Assembly (NCBI GenBank): GCA_965153455.1
Contig: OZ234493.1
Location: 17,598,213-17,662,212, forward strand
Source of the DNA: Sphagnum compactum
Lineage: Eukaryota
Reading direction: 5' to 3'
Length of the DNA stretch: 64,000 nucleotides
Shown: positions 2,035-57,100 of the stretch, piece by piece
Layout of the letters: every line of letters begins with the position of its first letter
How positions within the stretch are numbered: the first letter of the stretch is position 1
The notes under the pieces: generated by a model
The model's input: only the letters and a program-made list of their open reading frames with translations
Told to the model about the DNA's origin: nothing
Databases searched by the model: none
Program-made: the position numbers and the translations under genes

Positions 2035-5000
2035 TCAGTTTGCAAAAAGCTGTCCAAGTGCATTGTAAAGGGGAGTGGCAGCTCTAGGTGGTGGGACTTC
2101 TCCCATCAAAATATCAATGGCAGTAATACTCGAATTGCCATAAAACCGTCCATTGGTTGAAGAACGAGTGGCCACCACATTGCCTTCCAAAGAGCATCCA
2201 ACAAATGCGCCTACACAAGTCAAGAAAATGTGTCAGAGAATCAAGCATTTTGAAAACTGCCATGAAAGCCTTTGGAGTCCCTAACATATTTTTTGTATAG
2301 TCCCTGCCTCCTGAGAAACAAATTTCATTGCAGGGCCACAAATCCTGGGATCAACATTTCAGGAGATACAAGCTGTTACAGAAATCAACTATGCCTTCAC
2401 TACACAGATTATGATTTTCTCAAAAAAAACGTAACTTTATAAACAAAACAAAGAGGTAAAAATCAAGAGACCAAGGCTCATTCTACAACATTATTGTGAT
2501 GAGAAACCTCAAGCTGACCCTTCAGTTTAGCTTGCCTGGTGGACGTAAAAGGAATGTTTGGGCAAGAGAACCCAAAAAGCACATAATGTATCAATGAACT
2601 TTCAAGCTGTCAGAAACTGTTTTGGAAGATAGGAAAAACTTCATGTGGGAATAAAATGTACTGAATATATGTGATCAAAAAAACTGTTCACTGACTCACT
2701 GACTCCAGCTACATGACAATACAAATGTGGTGGGATTCAGTAGCTGTCAGGGTGCTGAGTTAGAGTCTAGATTTTTCTTTCCAAATGAACATTCCTGTGT
2801 GAGTCATTTCAAAACACTTGCCTGAGAGTCACCAGGATGAATGACAACAGCATTGAGCCCATTATCTATCATATTTAGAAAAGTACAATTGACATTTTAT
2901 GGTCCATATCAAATCTCACCTTTGCTGCGGCTATAGGTATAGCAAGCGGTAGTCCCTCCATCACCTGCCCGCAAATCAGCTTCAGCAACTCTGCCTATTG
3001 GACCTGCTGCAATGCTAAGGCCAGCACCCATAGCCAAATGGACCTTCCCACTGAATGCTTTCACAGCCTCCACATTCCGCAACACTATGATGAAATCTGT
3101 CAACTCCCCACCTGCCTGCAAGATCCAGAAGGGTGTACATATCCATCACCACACAGCCCTCCATGGTCACCATACCAAGTCTCGTACAAAATAATTATAT
3201 CATCAGAGAAATGTCTCCACGAAAACACTATGTACATAACTGTTATGTCAGTTCCAGTCAAAAACAAACACAACAAAAATGTGTACAGTTATAGCATTGT
3301 GACTGTCACTCACAAAGTATTAGACCCTCACCTTCATTGTGGATGGCAGTGACTAGCTGCCATTACTCCATTGACCTCAACAGCTCCTGACAATGGTTGT
3401 AGATCAGTATATAATAGTCTGCTAAAAATTTGGGTAAACAATTCTAAAAAACTCTGCTCCTAAATTTCAGTTGCATTTCCAAAGGAATGGGAAGCTATGC
3501 TACCCAACATCATAACATAGCATCCAGTGTATTATCGTAGATGTATTGCATGACCTCAAACATCCATTACATCTGTAACCACTAGACTCTGAATGGTACA
3601 CCAATTGTGAAAGAGAGGGTCACGGAGATCATGTGTGCTTGAATAAACTTTTTCACCTCTTCAACAAAAGTACAAGAATCTCATAATTTTGTACGACCCA
3701 CTGTCACAAGATAGTATAGCAAGTCCTACGGACCCTGTGATAAAGAGGTGTTATCTATTGTCTTTCCCACACTGGAGATGGTTTGTACCCCTTCTATGCC
3801 AGAAATGACATAAGATGGACATCTCTAGCACATTACTAGTCGAAGACAAAGGAACAAGAGTGCAACTTGGCTATGGTCATTTCTTTATTCAGGTCCAATA
3901 TGTCTTTCACTGGACATAAGTGATGTGTCCACGAGTCCATAACAGACATGTCTTACGCTACGCCCACAGCTGATTTAACCATACCAGCATGCTTTTGAAA
4001 TTGTCATGGAGGACTATTATACAACCCTACTCAAGAAAAACAACTGCATGATAACAGACTGCCACATTGCAAGGAAATGTGAGAACTACAAACCTGAGCG
4101 CCCCAACCAAGACCACAGGAGGCAATAGCAGATGGTGCAGACCACGTGCCATCACTTTTGCGCGCCACCACTAGGCCTGTTCCCATCTTATAGGTGACCA
4201 TGAGCCCCACCTTCAAGACAGTTAAAATTGCCAGCCCTTTTGCTCCATCCAACACAGCATCAGGAATAGACTTATCAGGACCTTCTCCAACCTGCAAAGC
4301 AACATCATTGTCCAGCAAATACATGCATGTCAAATCCTAGAGAATTTCTTTGTCTTTGACCTTTGCTGTGAATTTGGATCTGTGTTACTGCCACTGGTTC
4401 ACTACCACAAAGAAGGAAATTAAGTAGGCATGTCTGCAGAGACCTGCTGTAATTAAGTCCTTGTAATGCCCTAACAAGCTTCTTCAAACACCATAGGTGT
4501 GAGTGTGAGTGGTTTCACAACCACAAACCTACCATATAGTAGCTGCGGAGGCTATTAGTTGCCTTGTAAATTTCATGCTCCATGGTAAGGCCAAGAGGAC
4601 TATTAATCCAAGCCCGCATACAACTCATATCAGTAACGTCATAAACCGCTGATTGGGCAGCATTGCTCACTCGGTCAACCAAAAACTGTTGAATGGGCTC
4701 TAACCTTTCCCAGCAAACATCACAAACTCTTTGTGGGTCTCGCTCCTGAAATTTCACAGGTAACAAACTCCGTCCAGAGGAGCACCTCCGACAGAAGATG
4801 CCTCCACAAAACCGACAATGATGCCGGCCACATGACAATGCCCGGAAATTTGTTGAACACTGCATGCAAGCTGATGCAGCACTGTCAGGTACCCACTCTG
4901 GAGGTTCTGCATCAAAAACTTCCCGTCGAGCATGAACATCAAGATCAGAACCTGTAATAAAAGGTGGTGCACTTGGAGTGTGACAATGGGCCAATGGATA

Positions 5001-6984: not shown

Positions 6985-7122
6985 CTGGCGGTTCCTTGGA
7001 TTTTTAAAGGATCGCCGGTTCCGGTTCTTTTAATTTTAAAGAATCGCCCGTTCCGGTTCTTTCGAACCCCTTAAAGAACCGACGGTTTCGTGAAAGAACC
7101 GACGGTTTTCTTGAAAGAACCA
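6985..7122. repeat. Inverted/direct AAAGAACC(G)/(C)GGTTCTTT motif cluster, probable end of a DNA-transposon-derived repeat
   Basis: Repeated ccggttc(tt) and aaagaaccgacggttt motifs in both orientations; related, more decayed motifs at ~14000-14310. Confidence 0.5.
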
Positions 7123-7223
7123 AATCAAATAACTTATCAAGATCACCTCCAAGTCACCTCTCTCTTGAGCTATTTCTGCCTTTTTCATTTGATTTCATCA
7201 AAGACACACCAAACTCTTATCAC

Positions 7224-7977
7224 ACGAGTGAGGGCAACCCGTGGCTACGCCACTCCAGCCACCCGTGGCACCTCGCCGGGGCCCCCGCAGCGGCTGCCCT
7301 GGCCTCTCCTACCTACCTTCCTACCTACCTACCTACCTACCTACCTTGACTTCTCACCCTGCTTTTCTACCTGCCTATCTGGCTCTCCTTCCTTCCTACC
7401 TATCTACCTACCTTGTGTTCTTACCCACAATTTCCACCTACCTGGCTGGCTCTCCTTTCTTCTTAGCTACCTACCTTGTCTCCCTACCCACCTTTTTTAC
7501 CTACCTGGCTGCCTCTCCTTCCTACCTACCTATCTTGTCTTCTTACTCACTTTTTCTACCTACCTGGCTACCTCTCCTTCCTACCTCTTTTTCACACCTA
7601 CCTACCTGCCTACCTACCTACCTCCCTTCTTTTCCTACCAACTGTCTGTACCAACCAAAAATTTAAGGCAGTTAAGTAGGTAGGTTTAACTTTTAATATA
7701 TTAGACTGCCCTGCCCGCATTTTTTTGTCTAGACGGACAGACAGACACCTTATGGGAACAAACTGGAAACATGGTGCCAACATCCCAATCCCAAAAAAAA
7801 AAAAAAAAATCTCACACCCCCCGCCCCGCCCTCCCGCCCTCCAACAACAAAATGGGCAAAAACTGGGCTCTCTCGGGTGCGCATGTTGTTAATAACTTTT
7901 ATTATGTCTGCCCTGCCCGCAATATTTTGGACAGACAGACAGACAGACAGACACCATGTTAGCTTTAATATATAAGA
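7224..7977 (-). mobile_element. Non-autonomous Helitron-like element(s) with (TAGG)n and (CTGT)n microsatellites and two nested 5' ends
   Basis: Minus-strand starts TCTTATATATTAAAG (~7977) and TCTAATATATTAAAAG (~7705); GC-rich 3' region ending ..CCACGGGTTGCCCTCACTCGT at ~7224; (ctac)n tract 7308-7621; (gaca)n at 7735 and 7930-7950. Confidence 0.5.
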
Positions 7978-8633: not shown

Positions 8634-11600
8634 CCCCCTCTTGCTCATGGCAGCATTAAACTCTATTTTATAACGACAAATATTGTGTTGGATAGAAAAG
8701 CACAAAAAAAATTAATTTATTATTATTATTATTATTATTATTTATAAAGGAAATTAAAATTCACCTCATCCCCTCTAAATCCAAGAATAGGACTACATAA
8801 TTTTCATACAATTCGGCATATGCAGTTTGTCTCATCTAGTCTCAAATTTGGTCCGTCCCACTACCTTCATGAGTAGATCCACTAGTTGGTCAATAGTAAG
8901 AATGTAATCAACATCCTCGTTCAACTTGTTGGCATGCAAAATGCCAATCTTTCTCAAAGTGTTTAAATTTGTCGTGGAAAACAAGATTCTTAGTAAATTT
9001 TATTGCACTTTGATTATCACACTTGAGAATGGTTAGGCCAACAAATCCAAAGCCAATATCATCAAGTAGCCCATGAAGCCATAGTCCTTCACAAGCACAA
9101 TTAGACAAGGTTCAGTACTCGACTTCACAACTAGATTTAGCAATCATAGTCTGCTTTTGGGTCTTCCATGAAATGGGAGAGAATCCAAGCATGAAGATGT
9201 AAGTGCTTTTGGAACATTGATCATCCACATTTTGAACAAAATCAACATCAATGTAACTGCGCAATGTGTTCTCTTCCCCTTCTATGTAATAGATTCCACA
9301 TGAAGGGTAACAACAGAAATAACGAAAGATAAAAAACATTGTTTGAAGATGGGCAACTTCAAGTGCTTGCATGTATCGACTAATGACATTGACAACATAG
9401 GCAATGTTGAAATGCATGTGAAAAAAATATAAAAGCTTACCCACAAGTTGTCAATATGGAGTGGGATCAACAAGAGCAGTGTCCATGACACGTTTGAAAA
9501 TAACTCCTTCATGGATAGGCACATAAGTTGGGCGACAATCCAACATTTGGGCTTTGCAAAGAATGGTGAGACAAAAGTTTGTTTGATGCAAAAGAAAGTT
9601 GTGATGTGTTCATTAAAATTAAACACCAAGATAACGTTGAATGTTCGACCAAGTTTCGTCATGGCAAATTCAGTCCTTAGAGCAGAAACGATGGTTTGGA
9701 GCAAGGCATGATTGCTACCAATGATGAGTAAATCATCAACATAGAGAATCAACAAGACTATAGAGGAAGTAGTAGCAAGAATGTAGAGGTTGCATTAGCA
9801 TCACTTTTGCAAAGGCCAATGTGGCAAAAATATTGGTCAATGTGAGTATACCAAGAGTATACCAAGCTCGAGGGCTTTGACATAGCCATAAAGATCGCAT
9901 CAAAGGTGACAAAGCTTTTGCTCTTGTCTAGGCATGATAAATCCTTCTTCATTGAAAAAATCATTCAGAAAGGTTATTTGGACATCAAGATGTTCAATGC
10001 ACCATCCATTGTGTGTGGCAATGGCAACTATTGTACGAATAGTTTCCCATTTGACAACTGGAATGAAGGTTTTTGTGTAATCCAAACTAAGACGTTGTTC
10101 AAAGTTGTGTGTAACTAATCAAACCTTGTATCGGACCCCATCACCAATGACATTTGGTTTTTTCTTGTACACCCAATGAGTTGTGATGGCATGTTTGCCG
10201 AGAAAAAGGTCCTCCAATGTCCATGTTTGAATTGCTAAAATGGAATGGTATTTGTCTTGCATCATAGCTTGTTCGTTATAGGATTTAAAAAAACATTTTG
10301 ATACTAAAGATCTTCGCCATCATCTTCAATAGCACCAATGAACATTTCGGTTGTTGTTTTGAATTCACAAAAAACAACGAAATCTTTGAGCCACTGATTA
10401 AGGTGGCGTTGACGTGAGCATCGTCATAATGACATTGTGTTAATTGGTGTAGAAAATAATATCACTGAAGTTGGTGTTGTTGATTCGGTCGACATCAATG
10501 TGGTACAAGCACCATGGACATTGACAGTGCTAGCACTATTGTTGCCATTGGTTTGGTGAGCACCCTTGATTCCGTTAAAGGATATAGTTGCAAATGTTGG
10601 TGAGAAGTGATGAAGGATGGAAATGTCAAAGCCGGAATAATTGGCGATGATGAATTTGGCAACGGTGACACTAGATCAACACCTCCAGCTGTAACAACCC
10701 ACAGATAATTGAAATCTAGTGTTGAAATTGGTGCAAACACGACACGCAAAGGTGGGTCATTAATGTTATCAAAAACAACAACAATATCATTGTTTTAGAC
10801 GATTGGATTAAAAGTCTCCATAATCTTGACATCTCGAGAAATAATGACCTTGCGAATGGATGGCTAATAGCAACAATAACCTTTGACCTCGTCATCACAT
10901 GATTAGCCAAAAAAAACTCCTTAGGTGTCTTGTCATGGTGAAATTTTGTTGATCTCAAATTTAGCACACAACATGTAGCTTGAATAACTTCTCCCCATAA
11001 GAATTGAAGCAATCCTTTATCAAAGATAAAACATTAAGTGATGTCAAGCAAAGAGCGATTACACCTCTCAGTCACATCATTATGTTGAGGGGTGTATGGT
11101 GTAGTAAATTGTCTTTTGATGCCAACATTAGCACAATAGGTCAAAAAATGGTGTGAAATGTATTCACCATAATTATTTGTCCAAAGTGCAAACTTATTCG
11201 TTGGGAAATACATGTTTCAGCCTCTTGTTAAAAAAGATGAAACTTGTTGAGGACTTCATCTTTGTGAGCCATGAAATACACCCAAGTTTTCCTAGAGTAA
11301 TCGTCGATGACTTGCTCACAAAGTAGCATGTTCTTACCAAACATGGCATTCAAAATGGCCCACACACATCTAAATGGATTAACTACAAATTCTCAATGGC
11401 CCTATTCTTAGTAGCCTTTGAAAATTTAGTGCAAGATTACTTCCCATGCAAATAACATGCACAAGGCCTATTAAAGAGTTTCATAAGGGGTAGTCCAATC
11501 AATGTTCTAGATTAGATCATTTGGTGAAGCCTATCCTTGTGAAAATGGCCAAATCATTTATGCTAGATCTCCCCTTTGGTGAAACCAAAAGGAATAATTA

Positions 11601-13407
11601 AATTGACCTCCCCTAAAGGATTGACCATTGTTTGTCCTTAAAGTTGGTAATAAACCTTTTCCATTTCTCTCTCAACAAAAGCAACAAGTTATCTAGTATA
11701 ATGGTTTCATAGAAAATAGCCTTCCAACATAAATTCAACACTATGATTTTTAATAGTGATGAACCCAATAGAGAGCAAATTCTTTTAGATTGTAGGAGAG
11801 TATAAAACGTGAGGTATACTCTTAACAACACCGTTAGAAAATTGGATATTAACATTGTGAATGCATGCAATGTCATGTCCTTGGCCACTAATTGAACAAA
11901 GGTCGTTGTCGTTCACGTGCTGCATGCTAAAGAAGATTGCAAGATTATCGTTTATAAGGCGAGTGGTTCCAAAATCCAAGTACCATGATGATAATAAAGG
12001 TGGTGGAGACTCAACTTGATTGAGATCAACTGAACAAATAGCCAAAGCATTAGTAATTGTCAAATTGAAATATTTTTGTTCATTAATAGTACCAAGCTTT
12101 TAGTTAGACTAAAGTTCAATTGTGTAGGCTTCAATGTTGTTACCCAAATCGACAAAATCTTCAACCTCCTCTTCAACATTAAGTTTTTCCTCGGAACAAG
12201 AATTTCGTCTACTGCATTAACTTGTCCATGCAATCAATTCCTCTTTTTTTTAAGCTTAAACTCCAAGTCCTTCATTTGGTTAATCATCGCTTGAATTTCA
12301 CATTCACGTTTCAGATGACCCTTTTTACCACAACAATTACAGATGATTGACCTTGGTTGGTTGGTCCCCCGTGGTCTATAACATGGTTGATAATTGTTTG
12401 TTGAATTATGACTAAGTTAGTTTGTGGTTGAAAAAGAGTTGGTGTTTCAACAATTGTTGGAATTCCTTCCTTGTGGCATCGAATGATGATAGTTGTTGTT
12501 CAATCCTCTAAAAACAACATTTGGGTTTTGTCGAATTTGAAGTCAATGATTCCTTGAATCGCCAAATGTATTCTTGTGACCTTCCACCGCAAGTGCCTTT
12601 CCATTGTTTTCTCCAACAAGCTTTAAAACAATCTATTTGTTCAGTAATTTAGCTTCGAAAGCCTCGTAAATTAGAAGTTTATCATTCTTAGTTTACATAT
12701 CTTTGAACATGTCACACTCCTTGGGCAAATTTCAGAGCGTATAATGGAGAATAATATCCTTAGGTAGTGACACTCCAATTTCTTCAAGTTGATTTGCCAC
12801 ATTTTATATTTATGTTAAATGAACATCCATAGTAATATTGTCAATCTTTTTTCAATTGAGAAATTTATCAATTAACATGACTTTTCTATGCACCACATTA
12901 GACTCACAATGATCTTAAGAGCCTTCTAGTAAACAAACGAATCAAAGCATCATTTGAACAAGTTCATAACAAAAAAATTTGCATTATTATTAAATGCACT
13001 CATCGTTTTTTACCATCCAATGATCTCCTGGTCATTAATCGAATTAGCAAATTTGGTCACATAGTAGGAGAACAAGTTGTCTTGTTGAAGTGCATGTTTC
13101 ATTCTATATGCCCATATGCCATAATTAGATGCCCTTTCCAATTAATAAGCCTCTAGAATTTTTTGGTTCACCACCCATCATAACCATTGTGTGTTGTAGC
13201 GGTTTTTGTTTACTACTAGATCTTATTGGTGTCTCTTGTATGGTCTACTTTCTAGACATTTTAATTAATCTCTCGCAAATAATATAGAATTTCAAGACAA
13301 ACATTGTTATGGGAAGTCACCCACTCACAAGCTACACTCCTTAGCTGGTCACACTAATTTGAGGAAAATATAAGCTCACAATCCTAAATCAAACGACTCT
13401 AATACCA

Positions 13408-16002: not shown

Positions 16003-17328
16003 CACTACCAGAATCCTTAGTTTTTCAAACAATCCAAGTTGACTAATTAAATTTTTTTTACTAGTGAACATGTACATTTTGATTAGAGGCTAGGGGCTTG
16101 GATGACATGTGTATTTTTTGAATAGTCAATTTGGTTGAAATGACCTATTTGACTATTTGTTAACTTGGACATTTTATCAAATTGGACAAAAACTTGACCA
16201 CCTTGATTAAAATGGCCAATGACGTTTAGCCAATTGGAACATTTAGTCAAGTTGGACATAAACAAATGACAACTCTAGTTAAGATTGCCAATGTTATTCC
16301 AGTCAAATGGGGCATCCTACCTACCTATCTACCATATTCTACAACCTTCCTACCTACCTACCTACCTATCAACCTATTGACCTACCTACTCAACTGCCTA
16401 CCAACCTATTTATCTACTTACTTTCTTACTTATTTTCATATTTACCTACCTACTACAACCTACATACCTACCCACCCATTCACTTACTTACCTACCTACT
16501 ACAAATTATTCACCCACCCACCCACCTATTTACCTACCTATTATAATCTACTCACCTAGCCACCCACCCGCCCACTTACCTATCGGCTTACCGACTTGCC
16601 CACCCACTCACCTATTAATTATTGCCTGCCTACTTACTTAGTTACCCACCCACCTACCTCCCCACCTACTTATTTACTTACCAGCCACCCGTTTATCGGC
16701 TTACCCACCAATTCGCCCACCTATTAACGACCTACTTACCTAGCTACCCACCCACCTACTCACTACCTACTTATTTACCCACTCACCAACCCACCCACCT
16801 ACCTCCCACAACATACCTACCTACGTACCTTGTAATCTTGTAATGATGCATCATAATAAACATGTGAAATAAAAAACTTGACAAAAGTTGAACACTTTTT
16901 GATGGTGTGGTCAATTCATTAAGAATTTGGTTTATCATTGGGGAGGTCAAGGGTTCAATTCCTAATATTTGTAATCTATGAATATGCTTAGGGGGTTAAG
17001 GTAGGTTGGTTAAGCTAGGCTAGGCTACCACCTATTTACTTACATTTTTATAACCTACCTGCCTCCATGCTTGCCTACAAATTATTATTTTTATAATAAT
17101 ATTAAAATACATTATTTAAATCATTTGAATAGTCAAATGGTGCAATATTCATTAGTCAAAATGACTAGTCAAATGGTCCTGATTCTGCTAGTCAAAATGA
17201 CCACCCCAATCACATTAAATATGTTAAAATCCACTTGTCCAAAATGATTGGGGGTTTTTTTGCCCCCCCCCCAATCTGGTTTTTTTGACCAAAATTCTGA
17301 ATTTGAAAAACCAAGAATTCTAGTAATG
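16003..17328. mobile_element. Non-autonomous CACTA (En/Spm)-type element with an internal (CTAC/CCAC)n degenerate microsatellite
   Basis: Left TIR cactaccagaatccttagtttttcaaa versus reverse complement of right end cattactagaattcttggtttttcaaa; 3-bp flanks ata/aca; subterminal tagtcaa/ttgac repeats; tacc-rich tract 16315-16830. Confidence 0.75.
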
Positions 17329-21032: not shown

Positions 21033-21408
21033 GAGCATGACCACCGGTGCTCAGTATGTGACCCTGCAAAATATTCCTCATATCCAAGTTTAGTTATTTA
21101 CTTTTTTGCAACTCCGCTCATAAGACCGAAGGAGGGACTGTTCAAATAGGTGGGAACTACTAATAGCAAACCACCTCGACCAATCATTATGATTCGTTGA
21201 TAAAAAACAGGGAGCAGCAGTCATATAAGATTTATCACACTCTTCTCTAGCTGTGCTCAGCTTTGCTGCGCTTTTTACGAGCGTCCACAAACTGAGCAAA
21301 ACGTGCAGGAGAAAAATCCAATTTCCTGAGCCAAACCGGCATAGGTTGACTTTGTTTTCCTCGATTTTAATGTGCAGGGTCACATACTGAGCACAGGTGG
21401 GGATGTTC
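21033..21408. mobile_element. MITE with long TIRs (PIF/Harbinger/Tourist-like)
   Basis: ccaccggtgctcagtatgtgaccctgca (21041-21068) is the near-perfect reverse complement of tgcagggtcacatactgagcacaggtgg (21373-21400); outer ends gagcat/atgttc. No clean TSD seen. Confidence 0.75.
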
Positions 21409-48100: not shown

Positions 48101-51100
48101 CTTTCTGCCAAGGAGGCTGCTTGCCCTTTATTTCTACAATCTGCTTCCAGTTTAAGAACATAGTCCTCAAGCTCTTGTTGCTTTTGCTCCTTCATGAAAA
48201 ACAAAAGAACAGTCAACAAGTCTGTCACAAAGCACAGATGCAGGGAATCCACAAACTAACTTAAGCACAGAGATAATAGTCAGGACATAAATGTCTGTCC
48301 TTACTCAGAATCAGGAAATTGGTACCAACCAGTGCAAAAACGTGTTCAGCACATGGAGCTCGAGCAATTTCAGCCATACTCTGCTCGAGCATCTCGTTCA
48401 GCTGCAGTACCTCCTCAGAAAGCTTCATTCTCGCATCATGTTCTCCTTTCAGTGTGGAGTTTGCATACACAATCTGCTCCTCCAGGTCTTTGCAATTTAC
48501 CTGGCTTCTCTCAAGTTTTTCTTTCTCAAAAGCAATTGCTTCCTCCAGCTTTCTCTGGCACTCTTGCTGGTCTTCAAGACTGGTGCTCAACTCCTTAACC
48601 TGCACCATGCACTGTTTTAGGACATTGCACATGCAAATTCTCTGCACAGCTGAAAATTCACAGCCAATAATAAAATCTGAACAGTATTTCAGGGAGGTGC
48701 AGGAATATACCTGTTGCTCAAGCAAAAGTGAGTTCTCAGTACTTTCTTGCAGTGCTTGCTTCAGCTTGCACATTTGTTCTTGGAAAGAATCTTCTGCTTT
48801 GAGAGCAGCCTCTTGCAGTTCCTTAAGCTGTTTGACAGTATCCATGTGAAAAAGTTATTCACAAGCATTTGTTGCATGAGATGAATGTGAATACCATCTG
48901 TTATGCAATCAACCTCCTAGTCAATTTGTTAGCAACAAAGAATATACTTGTTTCTCATTATGGCCAATTTTTATGGCACTATCCTGAAGTGTTTGCTCCA
49001 ATTTCACCACTTGCTCTTGTAGACAGTCTTTTGCAGTAACTACATCTTTGTAAGATTTCTGTAGCTGATACAAATCCAAGAACATGTCAACATTCTGCAA
49101 ACAAAGTCAGCTTTAAAAGCACTGTAATCAAAGATTCTCTAAAATTCTCTGCACAGCTGAAAATCCACAGCCAACAGAAAAACTGAACGCCACATATATT
49201 TTGGAACCGTGAAGGCATATACCTGTTGCTCAAGCAAAAGTGAGTTCTCAGCACTTTCTTGCAGTGCTTGATTCAGCTTGCACAGCTGTTCTTGGAAATA
49301 GTCTTCTGCTTTGACAGCAGCCTCTTCTAGTTCCTTGAGCTGTTTGACAGTGTACATGTGAACAAATTATTCACAAACAATCTTTGCATGAGATGAATGC
49401 AAGCACTCTAAAATTGACCCAATTGTTATGCAATCAACCTCATTATCACTTTGTTAGCAGTGAAGTACATACCTGTTTCTCATTATGGCTAATTATTATG
49501 GCACTATCCTGAAGTCCTTGGTCCAATTTCACCACTTGTTCTTGTAGACAGTCTTTTGCGGTAGTTGCATCTTTGTAAGATTTCTGGAGCTGATACAAAT
49601 TCAAGAACATGTCAACATCTCACTAAAACCAAAGTCACCTTCAAGAGCATTGTAACAGATTCCCTATGCATCAGAAATATGGAATGCATCTGGATAACCA
49701 ACCTGATCAAGCTGGTTGATAAGTTGTGTTATCTCCTGGTCAAGTCTTTGGCACTCTGCATCATGATTGCTTCTCAGTAGAGCCCATGCTGCCTTCTCAT
49801 CCTCAAACTCAAAAAATGCATCTGTAAGTTGCTGCATACATATACCAACAATCCAAATGTCAAGAATCTATGTGTCAACAGTCTCTGTGTCTTTTGCTCT
49901 TGAAAGAACAAGAGATCTCCGTGTCCATCACGAGTACAAACATAAGTCCACTGGATCAACCTCAGAATAAGATATCTGTGCAAAAGAAACTCCCTTTTGA
50001 TGATGTCACAAAAGGAAAGTCGGGCCCAAGGTTGGAGGGTAAAAGAAACCAGTCTATCAACACCAATCATTTTGAGCTAGAATTGTTTCTGTGATGATTC
50101 TCTAGCATAATATTGTTCTGAACCTTTAAGTTAGCATCTTCTCTTTATATTCACCTGGGTCAACTTGTCTTTCTCCAAAGCAAGGTCCTTTGCCAGTTTT
50201 TCAGCATCTTTGGATGCAGTTCCACAATCCTGCAGCTTCAGTACCTGGATCAAGGAGTAAAGCGTTATCAAGAGCACACCATGTGACATGATGTAGCAAC
50301 AATTCTCCACATACAAGAAGAATAATGAACCCCTCTTGCTACATCTGCAACAAGAACACATCTGCCCATAAAAATCATTTACCACCTAGAAATTAGGCTT
50401 TTGTTCATGCATTGGCTCTTTTAGAATTTAGAATTATGTTATCCTTCATAAGCCACTGACATGAAAGATATGATGATTTTAGCAGGTGATTAAATTAAAT
50501 ACCAGTGACAAATGTTCTGCTTGCAGAGCTTCTAATTCAGCAGCAGTAACCCTCTGCTGCTCCAAAGCCACTTCTAACTCTTTGGCAACCTTCTCCATGC
50601 CATCAGCTGCAGATTCTTTCTCTTGACCCAGGACAGTAATTGCCATCTCTGCCTCAGCAAGTTTCTCCTTGACGGCCGTCAAGTCACATTCCATCTCAGA
50701 CATTGCAAATTCAAGTTTTGCATATGTGTCCTGCCAAACAAAGCATGCCCAAATTAGATTCAATGGGAAGCTAATAAGAGAGCCAGAACACAACCATGGC
50801 AGAGAGAGTCAATTCTCATTAAGTGGAGGACCACACAACCAGGTTAAACTCCATGATGGACTGGAGAAACAACCAAGCCTTGTCTAGGTGTTCGCACCTG
50901 TGAAAGCTGCAGGTCAAAAGAAGTCTTCTCAAGTTCAATAGTTTTCATCTGCAAGGCATGTTCTGCAGTTGACAACTGGGCCTTAGTTTTGTTGAGACCA
51001 GTTGCTATAGATTCCCGCCGTTTGTCAACAATAGATTCACGCTTATTGAGCAATGCCGTACTCTGTCGCAGCTGCTTCAATTCCCGATCTATGTTCACTT

Positions 51101-54100
51101 TCTCAGCCTGTAAACCCAAATCCAGGAGCATGAATCGGCAGAAGCCTCCACATGGAAGAAATGAGCATAACCAAAGCAAAGAATCTGGAGACTTCAAGAA
51201 CATGATTTTCTGGAGAGAGCTCAAAGAATTTTACCTCAACTTTGCTTTTTTCAATCAAGGTTGATTTAAGCTTGGCCTCGATGTCTTTCATCTTGACTTT
51301 TAGCTTCTCAAGCTCCTTTCCCAGTCCATCACGTTCTTTTTCTAGAGCAGCTGGAGCTGACTTTGCAGCATTCAACTCCTTGCGGAGCACCAGGATGTCT
51401 GACCTCAATTGAGCTGCCTCTGTGAAATGCAACTGTTTCTGCACCTGAAACCACATGCAGAAACAAATAAAAGTTTCTGAGCATAAGGTGTGTTGCACAA
51501 GATACATACTTGCTCTACAAATTACTTAGTGCAATGCCTATGTGGCAATAAGCAAACTGCTGAACTTAATTGATATGCACCCGACTCACCTCCTGTTTGT
51601 TATTTGCCTCTATTGTAGCTGATCTTTGCAATACCAGCTCTGCTTCCCTCTCTGCCAAGGTCTTTTCCATTGCACACTGCAACTCACACAACAACTTATC
51701 AGACCCAATTCAGAACTTCAGTTGGGTGCCACTCTTATACATTTCTGAACCAAACATCAATATCAGTCAAACACAATAGTGTACCAAAGAGATTGTTGAC
51801 ATCATGTTGCAAGACTTTACTATGGATCTCGTTACATTAAATTATCAACATCATGCAAGGACCACGAACCTTTTCTGCTTCCAACTGTTCAATGTTCTTT
51901 TGTAGTAAAGTTTGCTCCTTGGAGTTCTCTGACAGAATGGAGTGAACCGCTGCCAACTGTTTTTCCTGATCATCAATCTCCAGGTTTGCTCGAGCTAGTT
52001 TGGTTTCAAACTCACTCAGCTCCACTTGCTGCATCTCAAGTTTATGCTTAAGACCCTCCATCTCTGAGTTTTCATTTACAAGCTCTGATATCCTATCTGT
52101 GAGCTGGGTTTCTTGCTGCTCCATCTTTTCAGCAAGCCTATTCATGTCATGTTGTATAACTTCACATGATTTTTGCAAATCATCTCTCTCTCCCTCCACC
52201 TTCCTAAGAGTGGATTGCAACAGCTCCTGCTTCTTCAAAAGGGCAAGCTTCTCTTCAGAATTTTCGAACACAGATTCCTCCAGTTCATGCACTCTGACTG
52301 CCAACTCTTGCTTCACAGCAGCAAACTGTGTTTCAAGGTTCTGCATGTCAATGGAAAGCATCTCAAGAGTTGCATTTTTCTGAGATAGAAGTGTGCCCAT
52401 TTCTTCATTTTCAACCCTAGAACTACTACACTCAGACCTTGCCAGCTCCAGGTTCTTCTCCACCAACTGGAGCTCACAAGTTCTTGACTCCAAATCTGCC
52501 TTGGCAGCAGCTGCCTCTGATTTGAGATGTACAATCTCCTCTTCAAGAAATTGCCGTCTGTCTTCTGTCTCAGACAACCTCAATTGCAATTCCTTTGTGA
52601 CCAGTGCGGCTTGAGCAGCTGCAGAATTTGCCTCCTCCAATGCACTAACTACTTCCTCATTGTCCCGCCTCTGCCTTGCCAACTCTTCATCAAGTGCCTT
52701 CAGCTCTTCTTGAGCCTCATCATTTTGTTTCTTGATTAGCATTCTCTCTGTCTCTGCCAAAGCTACTGTCACTTTCAATGCATCCTCCTCTCTTTGAAGA
52801 CGAAGCTTCTCCTCCTGAAGTGCATCCAATTCTGCTTTTGCACTAATCTTTTCTGCAGTTGTGGCTTGAAGCTCCTGTGAAACTAACAGTAAGAAGCATT
52901 TAAGCATGATAACTACATGGACAACTTTTGGACATGGGCACAGAAAGCTGCTCTCTTTTATCTGTTCCCACTCATCCTTGCCATACAAAGCTGAAGAAAA
53001 ATAGCACATCATGATGGTCCCTTGCACTAGATAAAATGAAAAGGTGATGGTCTGCAAGGAATACATGCTGACCTGTGTGAGCTTCTCCATCTCTCGAGCA
53101 GCTTCAGCGATTAATGCTTCAGTACTTTGGAGAGAAGTTTCACTTTTACCAAGTTTTTCAACCTGTTTGCATAACCAAGATTCAGTGTAGTATATGAAAA
53201 CAGCATCAAATTAGAGAAGTAGACCATGAAGAGATCTCCACTCACTGACATCCCACCATAGCATGTCAATGAGAACTGCTTCTCAAACTTGTTGATTTTC
53301 ATGAAAGCATATGGAGAATTCATTAATCTAAAGATCACTCCAAAACCAATGACCTGGCATCAAGGGAGTGCATGTACTTCATTGAAGTCATGAATATACC
53401 AGTATGCTGTGTTCATGCTCAAGAACGTTCACTTTGATTCTCAGGGATGCCATCTCCTCAGCTGCTCTCTCTGCATTCTCAGTTGCTATTTCCTTTCCTT
53501 GACTTAAAACAGGTGACACATGTTCAGCCTCTGCAAGTTTCACTTCTGGTGACTCAGAGATAGCTGTTCCCTCAGCCGTTGAATGCTCATAGTTGGCATT
53601 GGAGTCCTATAATGGGAACACAAAACATCAGAATCTTCCACAACATCCCCTTAATGAAACTTCTGATACAGAAGACTGCAATCTGCACTTGCACAACTAA
53701 AAATGGATGCAAGCACAGACAGAGATGGAATATCTTTATGGACAACTTGACAGCCAAAGCCAGGAGCTTGGAGCTGATAGGAAACTGCAATCTGCGCTTC
53801 TTAAACAGAATGCTATCAGTTGTCAGCTGTGCAAGTAAACATGATACTGTTCTGTTCCAAAAGTCCAGACTGCACTCTCCAATTGGCTTCCACAAGCTCA
53901 TGGCCTTGGCTGTCAAGTTGTCCATAAAGAAGTTCCATCTCTGTCTGCACTTGCTCACATTTTACCATCAAGACCTCTCTTTCCCTCCACAACTTGAAGA
54001 CAGCTTACCAGCTCTTCTTCCTTCCAATTGAAAGCAAGCTTCTCTTCAGCATGCATTTGCTTGGCTTTGTCCCACTCAGATGCACTCTTTGCCATGGCAG

Positions 54101-57100
54101 TTCGAATCGACTCATTTTCTGCTTGAACAGCCTGAAACTTTTGCTGAAGTGCCTGGGATTCCACCTCTTTTTGTGCCAAAAAAGAATCCATGACTCTCAA
54201 TTGCTCAACCACTGCAAGAGTGTCAGTTTGTGCCGACTCCAGCTTGTTCTGAGCTTCTTTGAGTTCTTGCCTGCGCTTTCCTTGAAGGCGATCCATGTCA
54301 GCTTGGGCCTGCTTGGATGTCTCTATGAGTGCATCCCTTTCTCCCTCAAGCACCTGGATAGTTACCTGCATTGTCTCACCCTTCTGAATCATGTGTGCCT
54401 TCTCAGTTGCAGCCTCTTGGAGGGCTTGCTCCAAAACCTTTACTCTCTGTTCAAGGGAATGCCTCTCTACATCCTCTGTTGATGCAAAGGCTTCGGCTTC
54501 TAAATCCTTGAGATTGTGCTCAAGCACTTGAAACTCTTTGTCTCGCTGCAACAAAAGTTCCTGTAGTTTCACCACTTCATTGGTTGCACCCAGAATCTTT
54601 GCATTTGCAGATTCCAACTTTGCCTCGGCCTGTTCAAGTTCTCCTTGTTGCTTCCTGACCTCCACTTCGAAGGCCTTTAATTCTTTGTCTGCTGACTTGG
54701 AAGCCTGACAGAAGGTGTCTCTTTGATTCTGAACTGCTTCAAGGGCCAACTGTAATGCTGTGTGCTCCTTCATCAGTGCTGTAAATCTGTTCTGAGGTTG
54801 CTCCAATGTTTCATTTAAAATGGAGCTTGATAATTTGACATCCAACAGAGCATCCTACATGCACAACAAAATACAGTTAGGCACATATTAGGAGAACTAG
54901 GACATGTGCAGGGAAGCACCCTGTCTAATGGAAAGTTCGGGTTCATGGGCTGTGCCTGGAAGTATCTCTGGTAGAGTGCAAAAGATTGAGTGGTCTCTGC
55001 AAATGTTGATTGTAGAGAATCTGCTATAGACATGCCAGCCTCCACTTCGCATTTTAGTTCGTCAAAGGAGGAAATCAACTCTGTTTGCAGTATCAATGCC
55101 TTCTCATTATCATTTTGCAGCCTTTTAATCTCAACCAAGGCCAAACTGAGCTGGTGCTGTGCAATGGCAGCTTCTTTCCTTGTGTCATGCAGCTCTTTCT
55201 TCACCTACTCACAAGCAGAATCTGATGGTCAGCATTTGAAGTTGTGAAAGGTGCACCTATAAACTATCTGAGAGGGCACAAGGGGAAAACATATTATTAC
55301 CATAATCAGAGAGTCTTCTGCAGCAATTGACTGGACCTTAGCCTGATCTGTCAGACTATCCAGCTCCTGCTGCATGGAAATTTTCTCCAGCTCCAGGTTT
55401 TGAAGCTGCACAAATGCTGCCTGACGGATTACACTTCATGAAAAACCAATGTATCAGTCCTTAGATCTCTCCAGGTGGAGTTGCTGTAAGAATTTCTTAC
55501 TTTGTTTTGCTATCCAGCACCTATCTTTATTAGACAAGACTTACAAAACCTTGAGGAACTGCATTCTACCTCCTCAAGATACTCTCGTGCTGTGATGGCA
55601 TGACAATTTGCCTCTTCTGTGAGACCATCCAACTCCTTCTGCATGTATGTTTTCTCCATCTCCAGATTCCGAACCTGCTAACATCCACTTCGATATTTGA
55701 GAGGGATGTCAATTCTTGAACTTCAATATGGAGAAGTAAATCATTTGCTGATGTTTCTGAGATTGATGTAGACCAACAAAATGCCAAAAACCAAACACTA
55801 CATCGCCCTTATGAAAACAGTAAAGCCTAAAAATTATAGTCAACAAATTATTTGAATAGGCCACTCAAGCAAAGTCTCCACACACTCACCACCTTGCTGC
55901 CAGGATTCACATATTATGATATACCTGAGCTCTGAGCTGCTTGAGGCTGGAATCAGCTTCACAACCATCCAAGCTTCTAACTCTTCTCTGCACCTCAGGA
56001 GCTTGCAGGAAATTATCATCCAGCTTTCGGACCTTGCTTGCAGCCATTTGGGCATTGACCAATTCCTTCTTCAACTCCTCAATTTCAATCATCTTTTCCT
56101 GCATCTGCCAAAGAAATGCCAGTACTTAACAATAGCACAAATTGAATTTGATGCAATTGGGTGTCAGACAAGAACCGATGAACTGTTGGAACAGTCGCCC
56201 ATCTAAAGGGACCATAAATTCCAAGGATCATGGCCAAGAAGGTGTACTTCTCACCTTAAGTGCACTGTCATACTGGAGGTCATCATATTGTGCTTGTAGA
56301 TAACCAATCTCCTGCTTAAGCTGCAAAATCCGTGCCAGATCATCACTTAAAAAGAACTAAACAAAATGTTTCCTATGCAGTGTCTCTCAATGCCCATGTC
56401 TCTATATCCTCTTTCGACTAGTCCTACATTCCCCCCAAATTATTGAGGTCATTGATCAGACTGAAAGTTTCAACTGAGCACTTATAAGAGCATCAGAGCA
56501 GTTCTTTAATCACAGAAGCAATCCCCAGCAACCCAAGAGCTGAGCTAGATGAATACCAAGAGCTCAGCTTAAGCTGCTTGGGCAACAAAGAGGAGGATTC
56601 GCAACTCACTTCAAGTGTGATCTCTTTATCTACTGACGCTCTTCTTCGCCGTTCACCTACATTGACCAGATCAGGCTCCAAGAATGTATTGTCCGAGTCA
56701 CTATAAGCTTCCATAGTTGGAGTTTCGACAGCCCCGTCTTCCTCTTCCTCTTTGAAAGATGAGAGCATGGTGTCTTCTTCCTCACAGAGCTTCTCAAATG
56801 GAGGTGGCAAACAGAGCTGCCTCTCCCTCTTTGTCGGAAGGACTGAAGAACCAAAAGGCCCCCGAGAAACCTCCTTCTGAAATGGCCTCCTCATCTCATG
56901 GAGCTGCAAAAGAGATCGATAAAAGGATTTTGCGGTTGCATGTGTGTCAAAGGGACAACTCTACATTCCACCATCAAGAACATCCTATCTTGCATATCTC
57001 TACAACAGAAATGTGCCTACTCCACAGGAAGCTATCTATGCAATTTTCACAAGCATTCAACAAAGAGCTAAGTCATGCAGCTACTAAGGTTTCCACAGGG

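Follow-up and report, generated by a model that had tools for sequence, protein, structure and literature searches.

The DNA analysed here is a 64,000-nucleotide (nt) stretch of Sphagnum compactum (contig OZ234493.1, positions 17,598,213 to 17,662,212 of the forward strand), referred to below as the window. Its minus strand carries a kinesin gene, one intron of which (53607..54008) holds a long near-palindrome that is predicted to fold into a hairpin in the precursor messenger RNA (pre-mRNA). The origin of this intron and of its hairpin is the subject of this report. As comparison with a paralogous kinesin gene shows, the intron is made of the tail of a former exon, a backwards copy of that tail and the end of an older intron.

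The host kinesin gene and its hairpin-bearing intron

On the minus strand of the window, the stretch between about 60660 and 50500 is collinear with P0015 (KAH8968815.1; residues 1-1738), a protein of Sphagnum fallax. P0015 has a Pfam kinesin motor domain, and the aligned pieces of the motor part share 52-98% identity with the window. The host gene encodes a kinesin whose motor is N-terminal and whose coiled-coil stalk is very long. A second public model, P0014 of Sphagnum tenellum, is 93% identical to the large stalk exon; it skips the hairpin region entirely and is therefore uninformative on the splice junction described below.

The stretch occurs in public sequencing runs labelled moss metagenomes. 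Splice junctions and sequence integrity were examined over positions 53000-55300 on contigs of two metatranscriptome runs (X15 and X17) and two DNA runs (X7 and X8). The large coiled-coil stalk exon (54009..54854, minus strand) has 282 codons, is in phase 0 and open throughout, and carries RNA junctions on both sides. It is about 64-65% identical to P0015 (residues 759-938). On its upstream side, contigs of both RNA runs join 54853/4 to 54955/6. The exon that follows (53400..53606, minus strand) begins with DSNANYEH; its 69 codons are likewise open and flanked by RNA junctions, and it is 58% identical to P0015 residues 1065-1135. The junction of the intron downstream of it (53163-53399) was seen in one RNA run. 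The two introns that neighbour the hairpin-bearing one are thus 101 and 237 nt in length.

Between these two exons, a 725-nt RNA contig (X17, record 4; 25 differences from the window) joins 53605/6 to 54008/9 and skips 402 nt. Since a cut shifted by one position gives GT..AG ends on the minus strand, the intron is 53607..54008. The resulting 53606|54009 junction is in phase 0 on both sides. It was seen in one of the two RNA runs; the contigs of the other run, X15, do not extend to it. The splice sites and both exon borders had been proposed in an original prediction made from the letters of the window alone, and they are matched exactly by this contig. RNA depth inside the 402-nt intron is zero in both runs and the DNA contigs continue through it; this zero RNA contig cover is not taken as a sign of efficient splicing.

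The possibility was also considered that the inversion and the frameshift described below are artefacts of assembly. A DNA contig of the same organism label from a different study (X7) spans 53000-55300 in one piece (2301 nt) with 8 substitutions and no indels. A DNA contig of a second organism label (X8) spans the same 2301 nt with 27 substitutions, again free of indels. The two contigs are independent and without indels, and misassembly, which the original prediction had listed as something to be excluded, is therefore not the explanation. Single contigs from two other data sets carry the whole stretch and nothing was found in favour of an artefact, so that this reading is refuted and its remaining chance is next to nil. 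The hairpin is present in the DNA of at least two taxa.

Some other features of the gene were recorded alongside. The 101-nt intron upstream of the stalk exon (54855-54955, minus strand) is apparently of the GC-AG type (TTCCAG|GCACAG...TGTAG|GATGCT). It is skipped in both RNA runs; the ends are given as CC..TG, and shifting the cut by one of the three ambiguous places turns them into CT..GC. Further downstream, two kinesin-stalk open frames at 48264-48854 and 49142-49366 (minus strand) share near-identical first residues (about 45), a likeness that points to tandem duplication of a stalk exon. The two public models, P0014 and P0015, seem to be incomplete. P0014 jumps from ...IRTAMAK to a stretch of the stalk much further downstream, without the roughly 460 residues between motor and stalk that are encoded by the window and by P0015, and P0015 ends abruptly at ...LSLLNS where the gene in the window runs on.

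The paralogue and the anatomy of the rearrangement

In a translated search (tblastn) of P0015 residues 901-1080 against the window, three relevant matches were obtained around the intron. The first runs straight across the donor site (KEEDFLSCLQLVEGER; window 54083-53976, 67% identity, 55 bits). The second follows after a change of frame, where EREALMKK...EQEKVV is aligned with EREVLMVK...EQNSIM (window 53983-53840, residues 937-984, 48% identity, 41.6 bits); together with the donor-crossing match it gives a sum E of 3e-17. The third lies on the plus strand (53710-53829) and is an inverted match to the same P0015 residues (28.5 bits, E 0.006). The 5′ part of the intron and, in opposite orientation, the sequence behind it are both homologous to one coding segment of P0015.

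P0015 is a paralogue rather than the orthologue, because it is only 64% identical in the stalk exon; the host gene is the other of the two paralogues of this kinesin in Sphagnum. Genomic loci of the paralogue were sought by a scan of metagenome contigs, in which six (L001-L006) were confirmed among 148 pattern matches. L001 encodes 284 of the 285 residues of P0015 851-1135, and it is therefore taken as the genomic DNA of the paralogue. In L001, the big exon (ending ...EAQK) extends to 3345 and is followed by an intron of 123 nt (3346-3468), a small exon of 51 codons (3469-3621), an intron of 117 nt (3622-3738) and, from 3739, an exon beginning DSN. The segment that is intronic in the window is exonic and open in P0015 and in all six loci. 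A more distant relative, P0005 (an open frame on a 21-kilobase contig, 37% identical), is collinear through the same segment. Since both P0005 and the paralogue keep the segment as coding sequence, the coding state is the older one. P0005 was found in a HMMER search with the stalk exon against 1.84 billion representative sequences, which gave 11 matches at E <=0.001; these were short fragments or stalk repeats, with no full-length orthologue among them. Three of the matches, P0005, P0006 and P0013, were inspected, and P0005 alone was informative.

Nucleotide alignment with L001 (blastn) resolves the intron into successive pieces. Window 54086-53852 matches L001 3004-3240 directly. Window 53834-53699 aligns in the opposite orientation with L001 3273-3129 (146 columns, 72.6% identity, E 8e-21), and window 53659-53562 again matches directly, to L001 3685-3783 (71.7%, E 2e-13). 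No counterpart of L001 3274-3684 was found within the window, and about 411 nt have therefore been replaced by a 136-nt inverted copy and a 39-nt filler. Within the lost 411 nt were 24 codons at the end of the exon, the whole 123-nt intron, the exon of 51 codons and, from the 117-nt intron, its first 63 nt.

The intron thus begins with the former exon tail (53835..54008, minus strand), which is collinear with L001 3082 to about 3262 and includes the sense arm of the hairpin (arm A, 53835-53963, minus strand). Next to it is the inverted copy of the exon tail (arm B, 53699..53834, plus strand), recognized both by blastn and by the translated match; it is antisense in the kinesin transcript. The two arms abut nearly without a spacer, and arm A seems to be about 12 bases short at the centre. 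The filler (53660..53698, minus strand) lies between arm B and the remnant of the old intron. Its positions 53690-53663 repeat, in direct orientation and in part, the inner section of arm B (53799-53774), with 24 of 28 columns identical and a score of 18 that was reached by none of 300 shuffles. A homology of the filler to the deleted part of the paralogue, where the end of the small exon was suspected, had also been tried; it scored 10, as did or exceeded 59 of 300 shuffles, and was rejected. The last 53 nt of the intron (53607..53659, minus strand) are the 3′ end of the ancestral intron, with the likely branch-site region, the pyrimidine tract and the AG, so that the acceptor is retained.

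The 5′ splice site, in contrast to the acceptor, is new. The exon ends in CTG|GTAAGC, and the GTAAGC at 54003..54008 (minus strand) is the site used in RNA. The G at 54008 corresponds to the T of a leucine codon, TTA, in the paralogue: both L001 and L003 read TTAAGC in the alignment with the window (alignment A1), and a single T>G change has therefore made the donor. Behind it, a GA run has lost 2 nt (between window positions 53984 and 53983, minus strand; columns 78-79 of alignment A1). This shifts the former reading frame, and the tblastn match moves from frame -3 to frame -1 there. Compared with the layout of the paralogue, the stalk is shorter by 139 residues (88 + 51).

The original prediction had described the 5′ part of the intron as former coding sequence, placed a frameshift near 53980 and let an inverted copy on the plus strand complete the hairpin. 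The paralogue match across the donor, the 2-nt deletion and the reversed match to L001, respectively, bear these claims out, and its question whether orthologues or the paralogue keep the segment as coding sequence is answered, for the paralogue, by P0015 and by L001-L006. Two other elements fared differently. In a search of the 64-kilobase window, the intron peptide resembled other stalk exons only weakly (E 0.062 and 0.31), and this likeness was not used as evidence. The idea of intronisation of coding DNA holds in that the donor is new and the 5′ part was exon; it does not hold as a simple conversion in place, the acceptor and the last 53 nt having come from an older intron. The event is best described as intronisation of an exon tail that was fused with an existing intron, via an inverted duplication and deletion.

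The near-palindrome formed by the two arms occupies 53700-53963. Aligned with its own reverse complement it is 75.6% identical over 270 columns (E 8e-46), and it is the largest of four inverted repeats of at least 35 nt in the window. Its size of about 265 nt and its palindromic shape are similar to those of a miniature inverted-repeat transposon, and insertion of such an element, or of another mobile element, was considered as the source of the hairpin. Both arms, however, are homologous to a single-copy coding segment of the paralogue, and the paralogue loci carry the forward copy only. A second copy of the palindrome is absent from the window, where the remaining matches of the self-comparison are no better than E 0.02. 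An inserted mobile element is thus highly improbable. In the paralogue no comparable hairpin was found: the inverted repeats there amount to one 23-nt pair in L001 and none in L003. This pair (L001 3132-3154 with 3548-3570, the latter in the small exon that the window has lost) matches at 83% and lies at the outer end of the copied segment, and it is possibly a trace of microhomology involved in the rearrangement.

The predicted hairpin, its age and its possible roles

The hairpin was examined by RNA folding. The sense (minus-strand) RNA of 286 nt (53690-53975) folds with -160.9 kcal/mol, compared with -81.8 +/- 5.0 for shuffled sequences (z -15.9), and none of 200 shuffles was equally stable. 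The plus strand of the region gives -147.1 kcal/mol (z -15.6). The homologous 286 nt of the paralogue fold no better than shuffles (z -0.58). The predicted pre-mRNA hairpin (53691..53974, minus strand) contains 117 base pairs (bp). Its outer arms, 53700-53770 and 53893-53963, are 71 nt each and 87% complementary, with a gap of 122 nt between them. In the predicted fold the outer stem consists of a helix of 22 bp (53954-53933 with 53730-53709) and a helix of 30 bp (53930-53901 with 53762-53733), which are separated by a 2x2 internal loop; a hairpin at 53709-53954 with almost perfect outer pairing, as had been predicted, is thus recovered by folding. A fold of the intron together with its flanks gives -202.4 kcal/mol (z -12.4). 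In this fold 53974 and 53691 form the closing pair of the main stem, and the pyrimidine tract and AG, in the last 80 nt or so of the intron, lie outside the stem. A scan of 53300-54300 with 4227 Rfam families gave no match at E up to 1. The predicted hairpin is a single foldback within the limit of about 300 nt, with few mismatches and no large asymmetric bulges, as is expected of a plant MIRNA foldback. Its 54-bp near-perfect stem nevertheless looks, in this model, more like the precursor of long hairpin-derived small interfering RNAs (siRNAs) than like a typical microRNA (miRNA) precursor.

The age of the duplication and the constraint on it were addressed by aligning arm A, arm B and the paralogue over 127 columns. 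All three agree in 77 columns, both arms differ from the paralogue in 21, arm A alone differs in 16 and arm B alone in 10, and three columns show another pattern. The arms differ from each other at 29 of the 127 columns (23%); the event is therefore old, and its junctions are too diverged for a confident reading of microhomologies. Between the two organism labels, 27 of 2301 positions (1.2%) are different. If rates were alike, the duplication would be roughly twenty times older than the split between the labels. Of 27 differences between the labels, 26 are listed; from these, 4 fall in the 402 positions of the intron and 14 in the 1053 positions of the two flanking exons. The exon differences are 9 non-synonymous and 5 synonymous, and the constraint on the stalk is therefore weak.

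There is no sign of selection on RNA pairing, either in the strand bias of G·U changes or in the polymorphisms. Transitions that preserve pairing through G·U number 9 for the sense RNA and 7 for the antisense RNA (p 0.8). None of the three variable stem sites (53735 in X7, 53780 in X8 and 53865 in the window) carries a compensated change; each breaks a pair in one sample. The hairpin is most likely, we infer, without a dedicated function. The whole arrangement is probably a tolerated rearrangement scar that was rescued by a new splice site and that folds by chance.

Three observations weigh against this interpretation. The 53606|54009 junction comes from a single RNA contig, which with its 25 differences (96.5% identity) must be from a close relative. 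Identity is higher in the outer stem, where 10 of 71 columns differ, than in the inner part, where 19 of 56 do (Fisher p 0.011). Finally, a 26-nt stretch of arm B (53744..53769, plus strand) is identical to the coding exon in six of six paralogue loci, whereas arm A has two mismatches there; when the match pattern is shuffled, a perfect run as long as this appears in 0.6% of cases (P 0.006), although the run was found post hoc. Since arm B has antisense orientation in the transcript of the kinesin gene, these 26 nt of the paralogue (L001 3173-3198) have a perfect complement in the pre-mRNA. The identity of the outer stem and the 26-nt run may each be due to constraint, either on the hairpin or on a small RNA. 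They could also be attributed to uncertain alignment near the centre of the palindrome or to uneven mutation.

In an alternative reading, the intronic hairpin could be a source of small RNAs, as a hairpin-siRNA locus or a proto-MIRNA that silences the paralogue. Cutting of the 54-bp outer stem by Dicer-like enzymes would release small RNAs, those derived from arm B would guide cleavage of the messenger RNA of the paralogue, and the mature messenger RNA of the host would be immune because the segment is spliced out. The length and near-perfection of the stem, with its stability, and the 26-nt identity in every paralogue locus speak for such a source. The exons of the host itself, moreover, hold no match to the intron beyond chance in the window, and inverted duplication of a target gene is, in the available excerpts of two papers, a published model for young plant MIRNA genes (PMC3237417, PMC1790633). 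Set against this are the absence of an Rfam family, the lack of any G·U-preserving excess on the transcribed strand, the breakage of pairs at all three variable stem sites, and the fact that the run was spotted after the event. A role as a small-RNA source is accordingly judged unlikely. The miRNA-like part of the original interpretation is held to be rather improbable, and similarly faint is the chance of the full scheme, in which the hairpin of the host makes small RNAs that silence its sister copy while splicing protects the host. If that scheme were true, a MIRNA-like regulator would have been caught at birth within an intron, and the origin of an intron, the origin of a miRNA and the resolution of a conflict between paralogues would be joined in one locus.

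The better preservation of the outer stem would also be expected if the hairpin were retained as an aid to splicing. The stem would loop out about 280 nt, so that the 402-nt intron acts like one of about 120 nt; in the predicted fold the stem begins about 34 nt after the donor and ends about 84 nt before the acceptor. The short neighbouring introns, and a closing pair that leaves the acceptor signals free, are in keeping with this. The stem shows no compensatory changes, however, and its polymorphisms break pairs. As is generally understood, an intron of 402 nt is not obviously too long for the plant spliceosome, and the donor and its flank pair weakly with other parts of the intron in the minimum free energy structure, in a manner that differs between this structure and the centroid. 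It is thus doubtful that the hairpin serves splicing.

The scar left by a tolerated rearrangement remains the preferred explanation, and the following course of events would account for it. A local fold-back, that is, an inverted duplication with a deletion, probably occurred in the stalk-coding region of one kinesin paralogue. About 411 nt were swapped for a backwards copy of the exon sequence just upstream, together with a filler that re-copied part of this copy. A T>G change in a leucine codon created the strong donor CTG|GTAAGC, which lies 264 nt upstream of where the old donor stood. Splicing now pairs the new donor with the old acceptor in phase 0, removing 402 nt and leaving the stalk shortened by 139 residues. 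The hairpin would be a by-product of this rearrangement history and is most likely decaying slowly. Assignment to a fold-back or template switch is made because the inverted copy touches its source, a deletion lies adjacent and the filler is templated, as is known of such events; the mechanism and the order of the steps are those that we infer from this layout.

Well-resolved cases of exon-to-intron conversion are few, and their mutational steps are seldom all visible. At this locus, the change of the donor, the frameshift, the inverted duplication-deletion and the re-use of the acceptor can each be read against a paralogue that keeps the old structure. The case shows that 139 residues can be lost from a coiled-coil stalk and the loss absorbed, and that a destructive rearrangement is tolerable when a new splice site removes the damage. 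It also provides, in a bryophyte, a place for asking whether small RNAs directed at a related gene arise when coding sequence is duplicated in inverted orientation.

Elsewhere in the window, a series of open frames at about 9100-12400 (minus strand), inspected by eye, is like a decayed retrotransposon of the Ty1/copia type, with integrase-like and reverse-transcriptase-like stretches, the latter marked by YVDDLLIIG. The second-best inverted repeat of the window has arms of 41 nt at 21033-21073 and 21368-21408, which are 85% complementary and separated by 294 nt; it may represent another hairpin or a mobile element of small size. On the plus strand, the long open frames of PTYLPTYL-like repeats at 7075-7680 and 16230-16840 are probably no genes but short tandem repeats of the DNA.

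Comparison with known systems

Template switches of the fork stalling and template switching (FoSTeS) and microhomology-mediated break-induced replication (MMBIR) type, and the repair of hairpin-capped breaks, produce inverted duplications with adjacent deletions and short templated insertions. The kinesin locus resembles such events in that the inverted copy abuts its source, about 411 nt are deleted next to it and the filler re-copies nearby sequence. The event is old, with arms that are 23% diverged, and the likeness is one of layout, from which alone the mechanism would follow.

The model in which plant MIRNA genes originate by inverted duplication is said to go back to Allen et al. in 2004, with MIR161 and MIR163 as its examples. 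As in that model, a backwards copy of coding sequence stands beside its source, the foldback is long and similarity to a related gene, here the paralogue, is extended. Unlike in the model, the kinesin foldback is situated within the parent gene, in one of the introns, and has the disabled exon of the parent as one arm. The stem is also longer and more perfect than that of an established MIRNA and is known here from a predicted fold. The model is treated, in the parts available, in an update on plant MIRNA origin (PMC3237417) and in a further paper (PMC1790633). Among the matches listed for Sphagnum small RNAs or miRNAs, no paper is by its title about hairpin loci of Sphagnum.

For plant MIRNA genes, Axtell and Meyers (2018) reportedly ask for precise excision of a miRNA/miRNA* duplex in small-RNA libraries and for a foldback of at most about 300 nt. 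Intronic MIRNA hairpins exist in plants, for instance MIR838 in an intron of DCL1. The kinesin hairpin is like MIR838 in DCL1 in that it sits in an intron of a protein-coding host and is transcribed along with it. Hairpins of the MIR838 type have defined miRNA/miRNA* pairs, whereas the kinesin hairpin is a predicted structure that matches no family.

Intronization was reportedly proposed by Irimia and Roy and by Catania and Lynch. In the available parts of reviews and surveys (PMC3443670, PMC2740785), it is the process by which exonic sequence is turned into intron. Among papers on intronization with inverted repeats or hairpins, no title or opening of an abstract describes a case of this kind. 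The present intron differs from intronization in which both splice sites arise from the exon, since only its 5′ side is new and the acceptor with 53 nt is inherited from an intron. It also differs from intronization by point mutations alone, in that a rearrangement is visible and a whole small exon and a further intron were swallowed. It is like intronization in its essentials: the segment is exonic in the paralogue and in a distant relative but is spliced out here, and the donor arose by a point change in former coding sequence. The distinctive feature of the kinesin locus is the combination of a new junction supported by RNA with a paralogue that preserves the ancestral layout.

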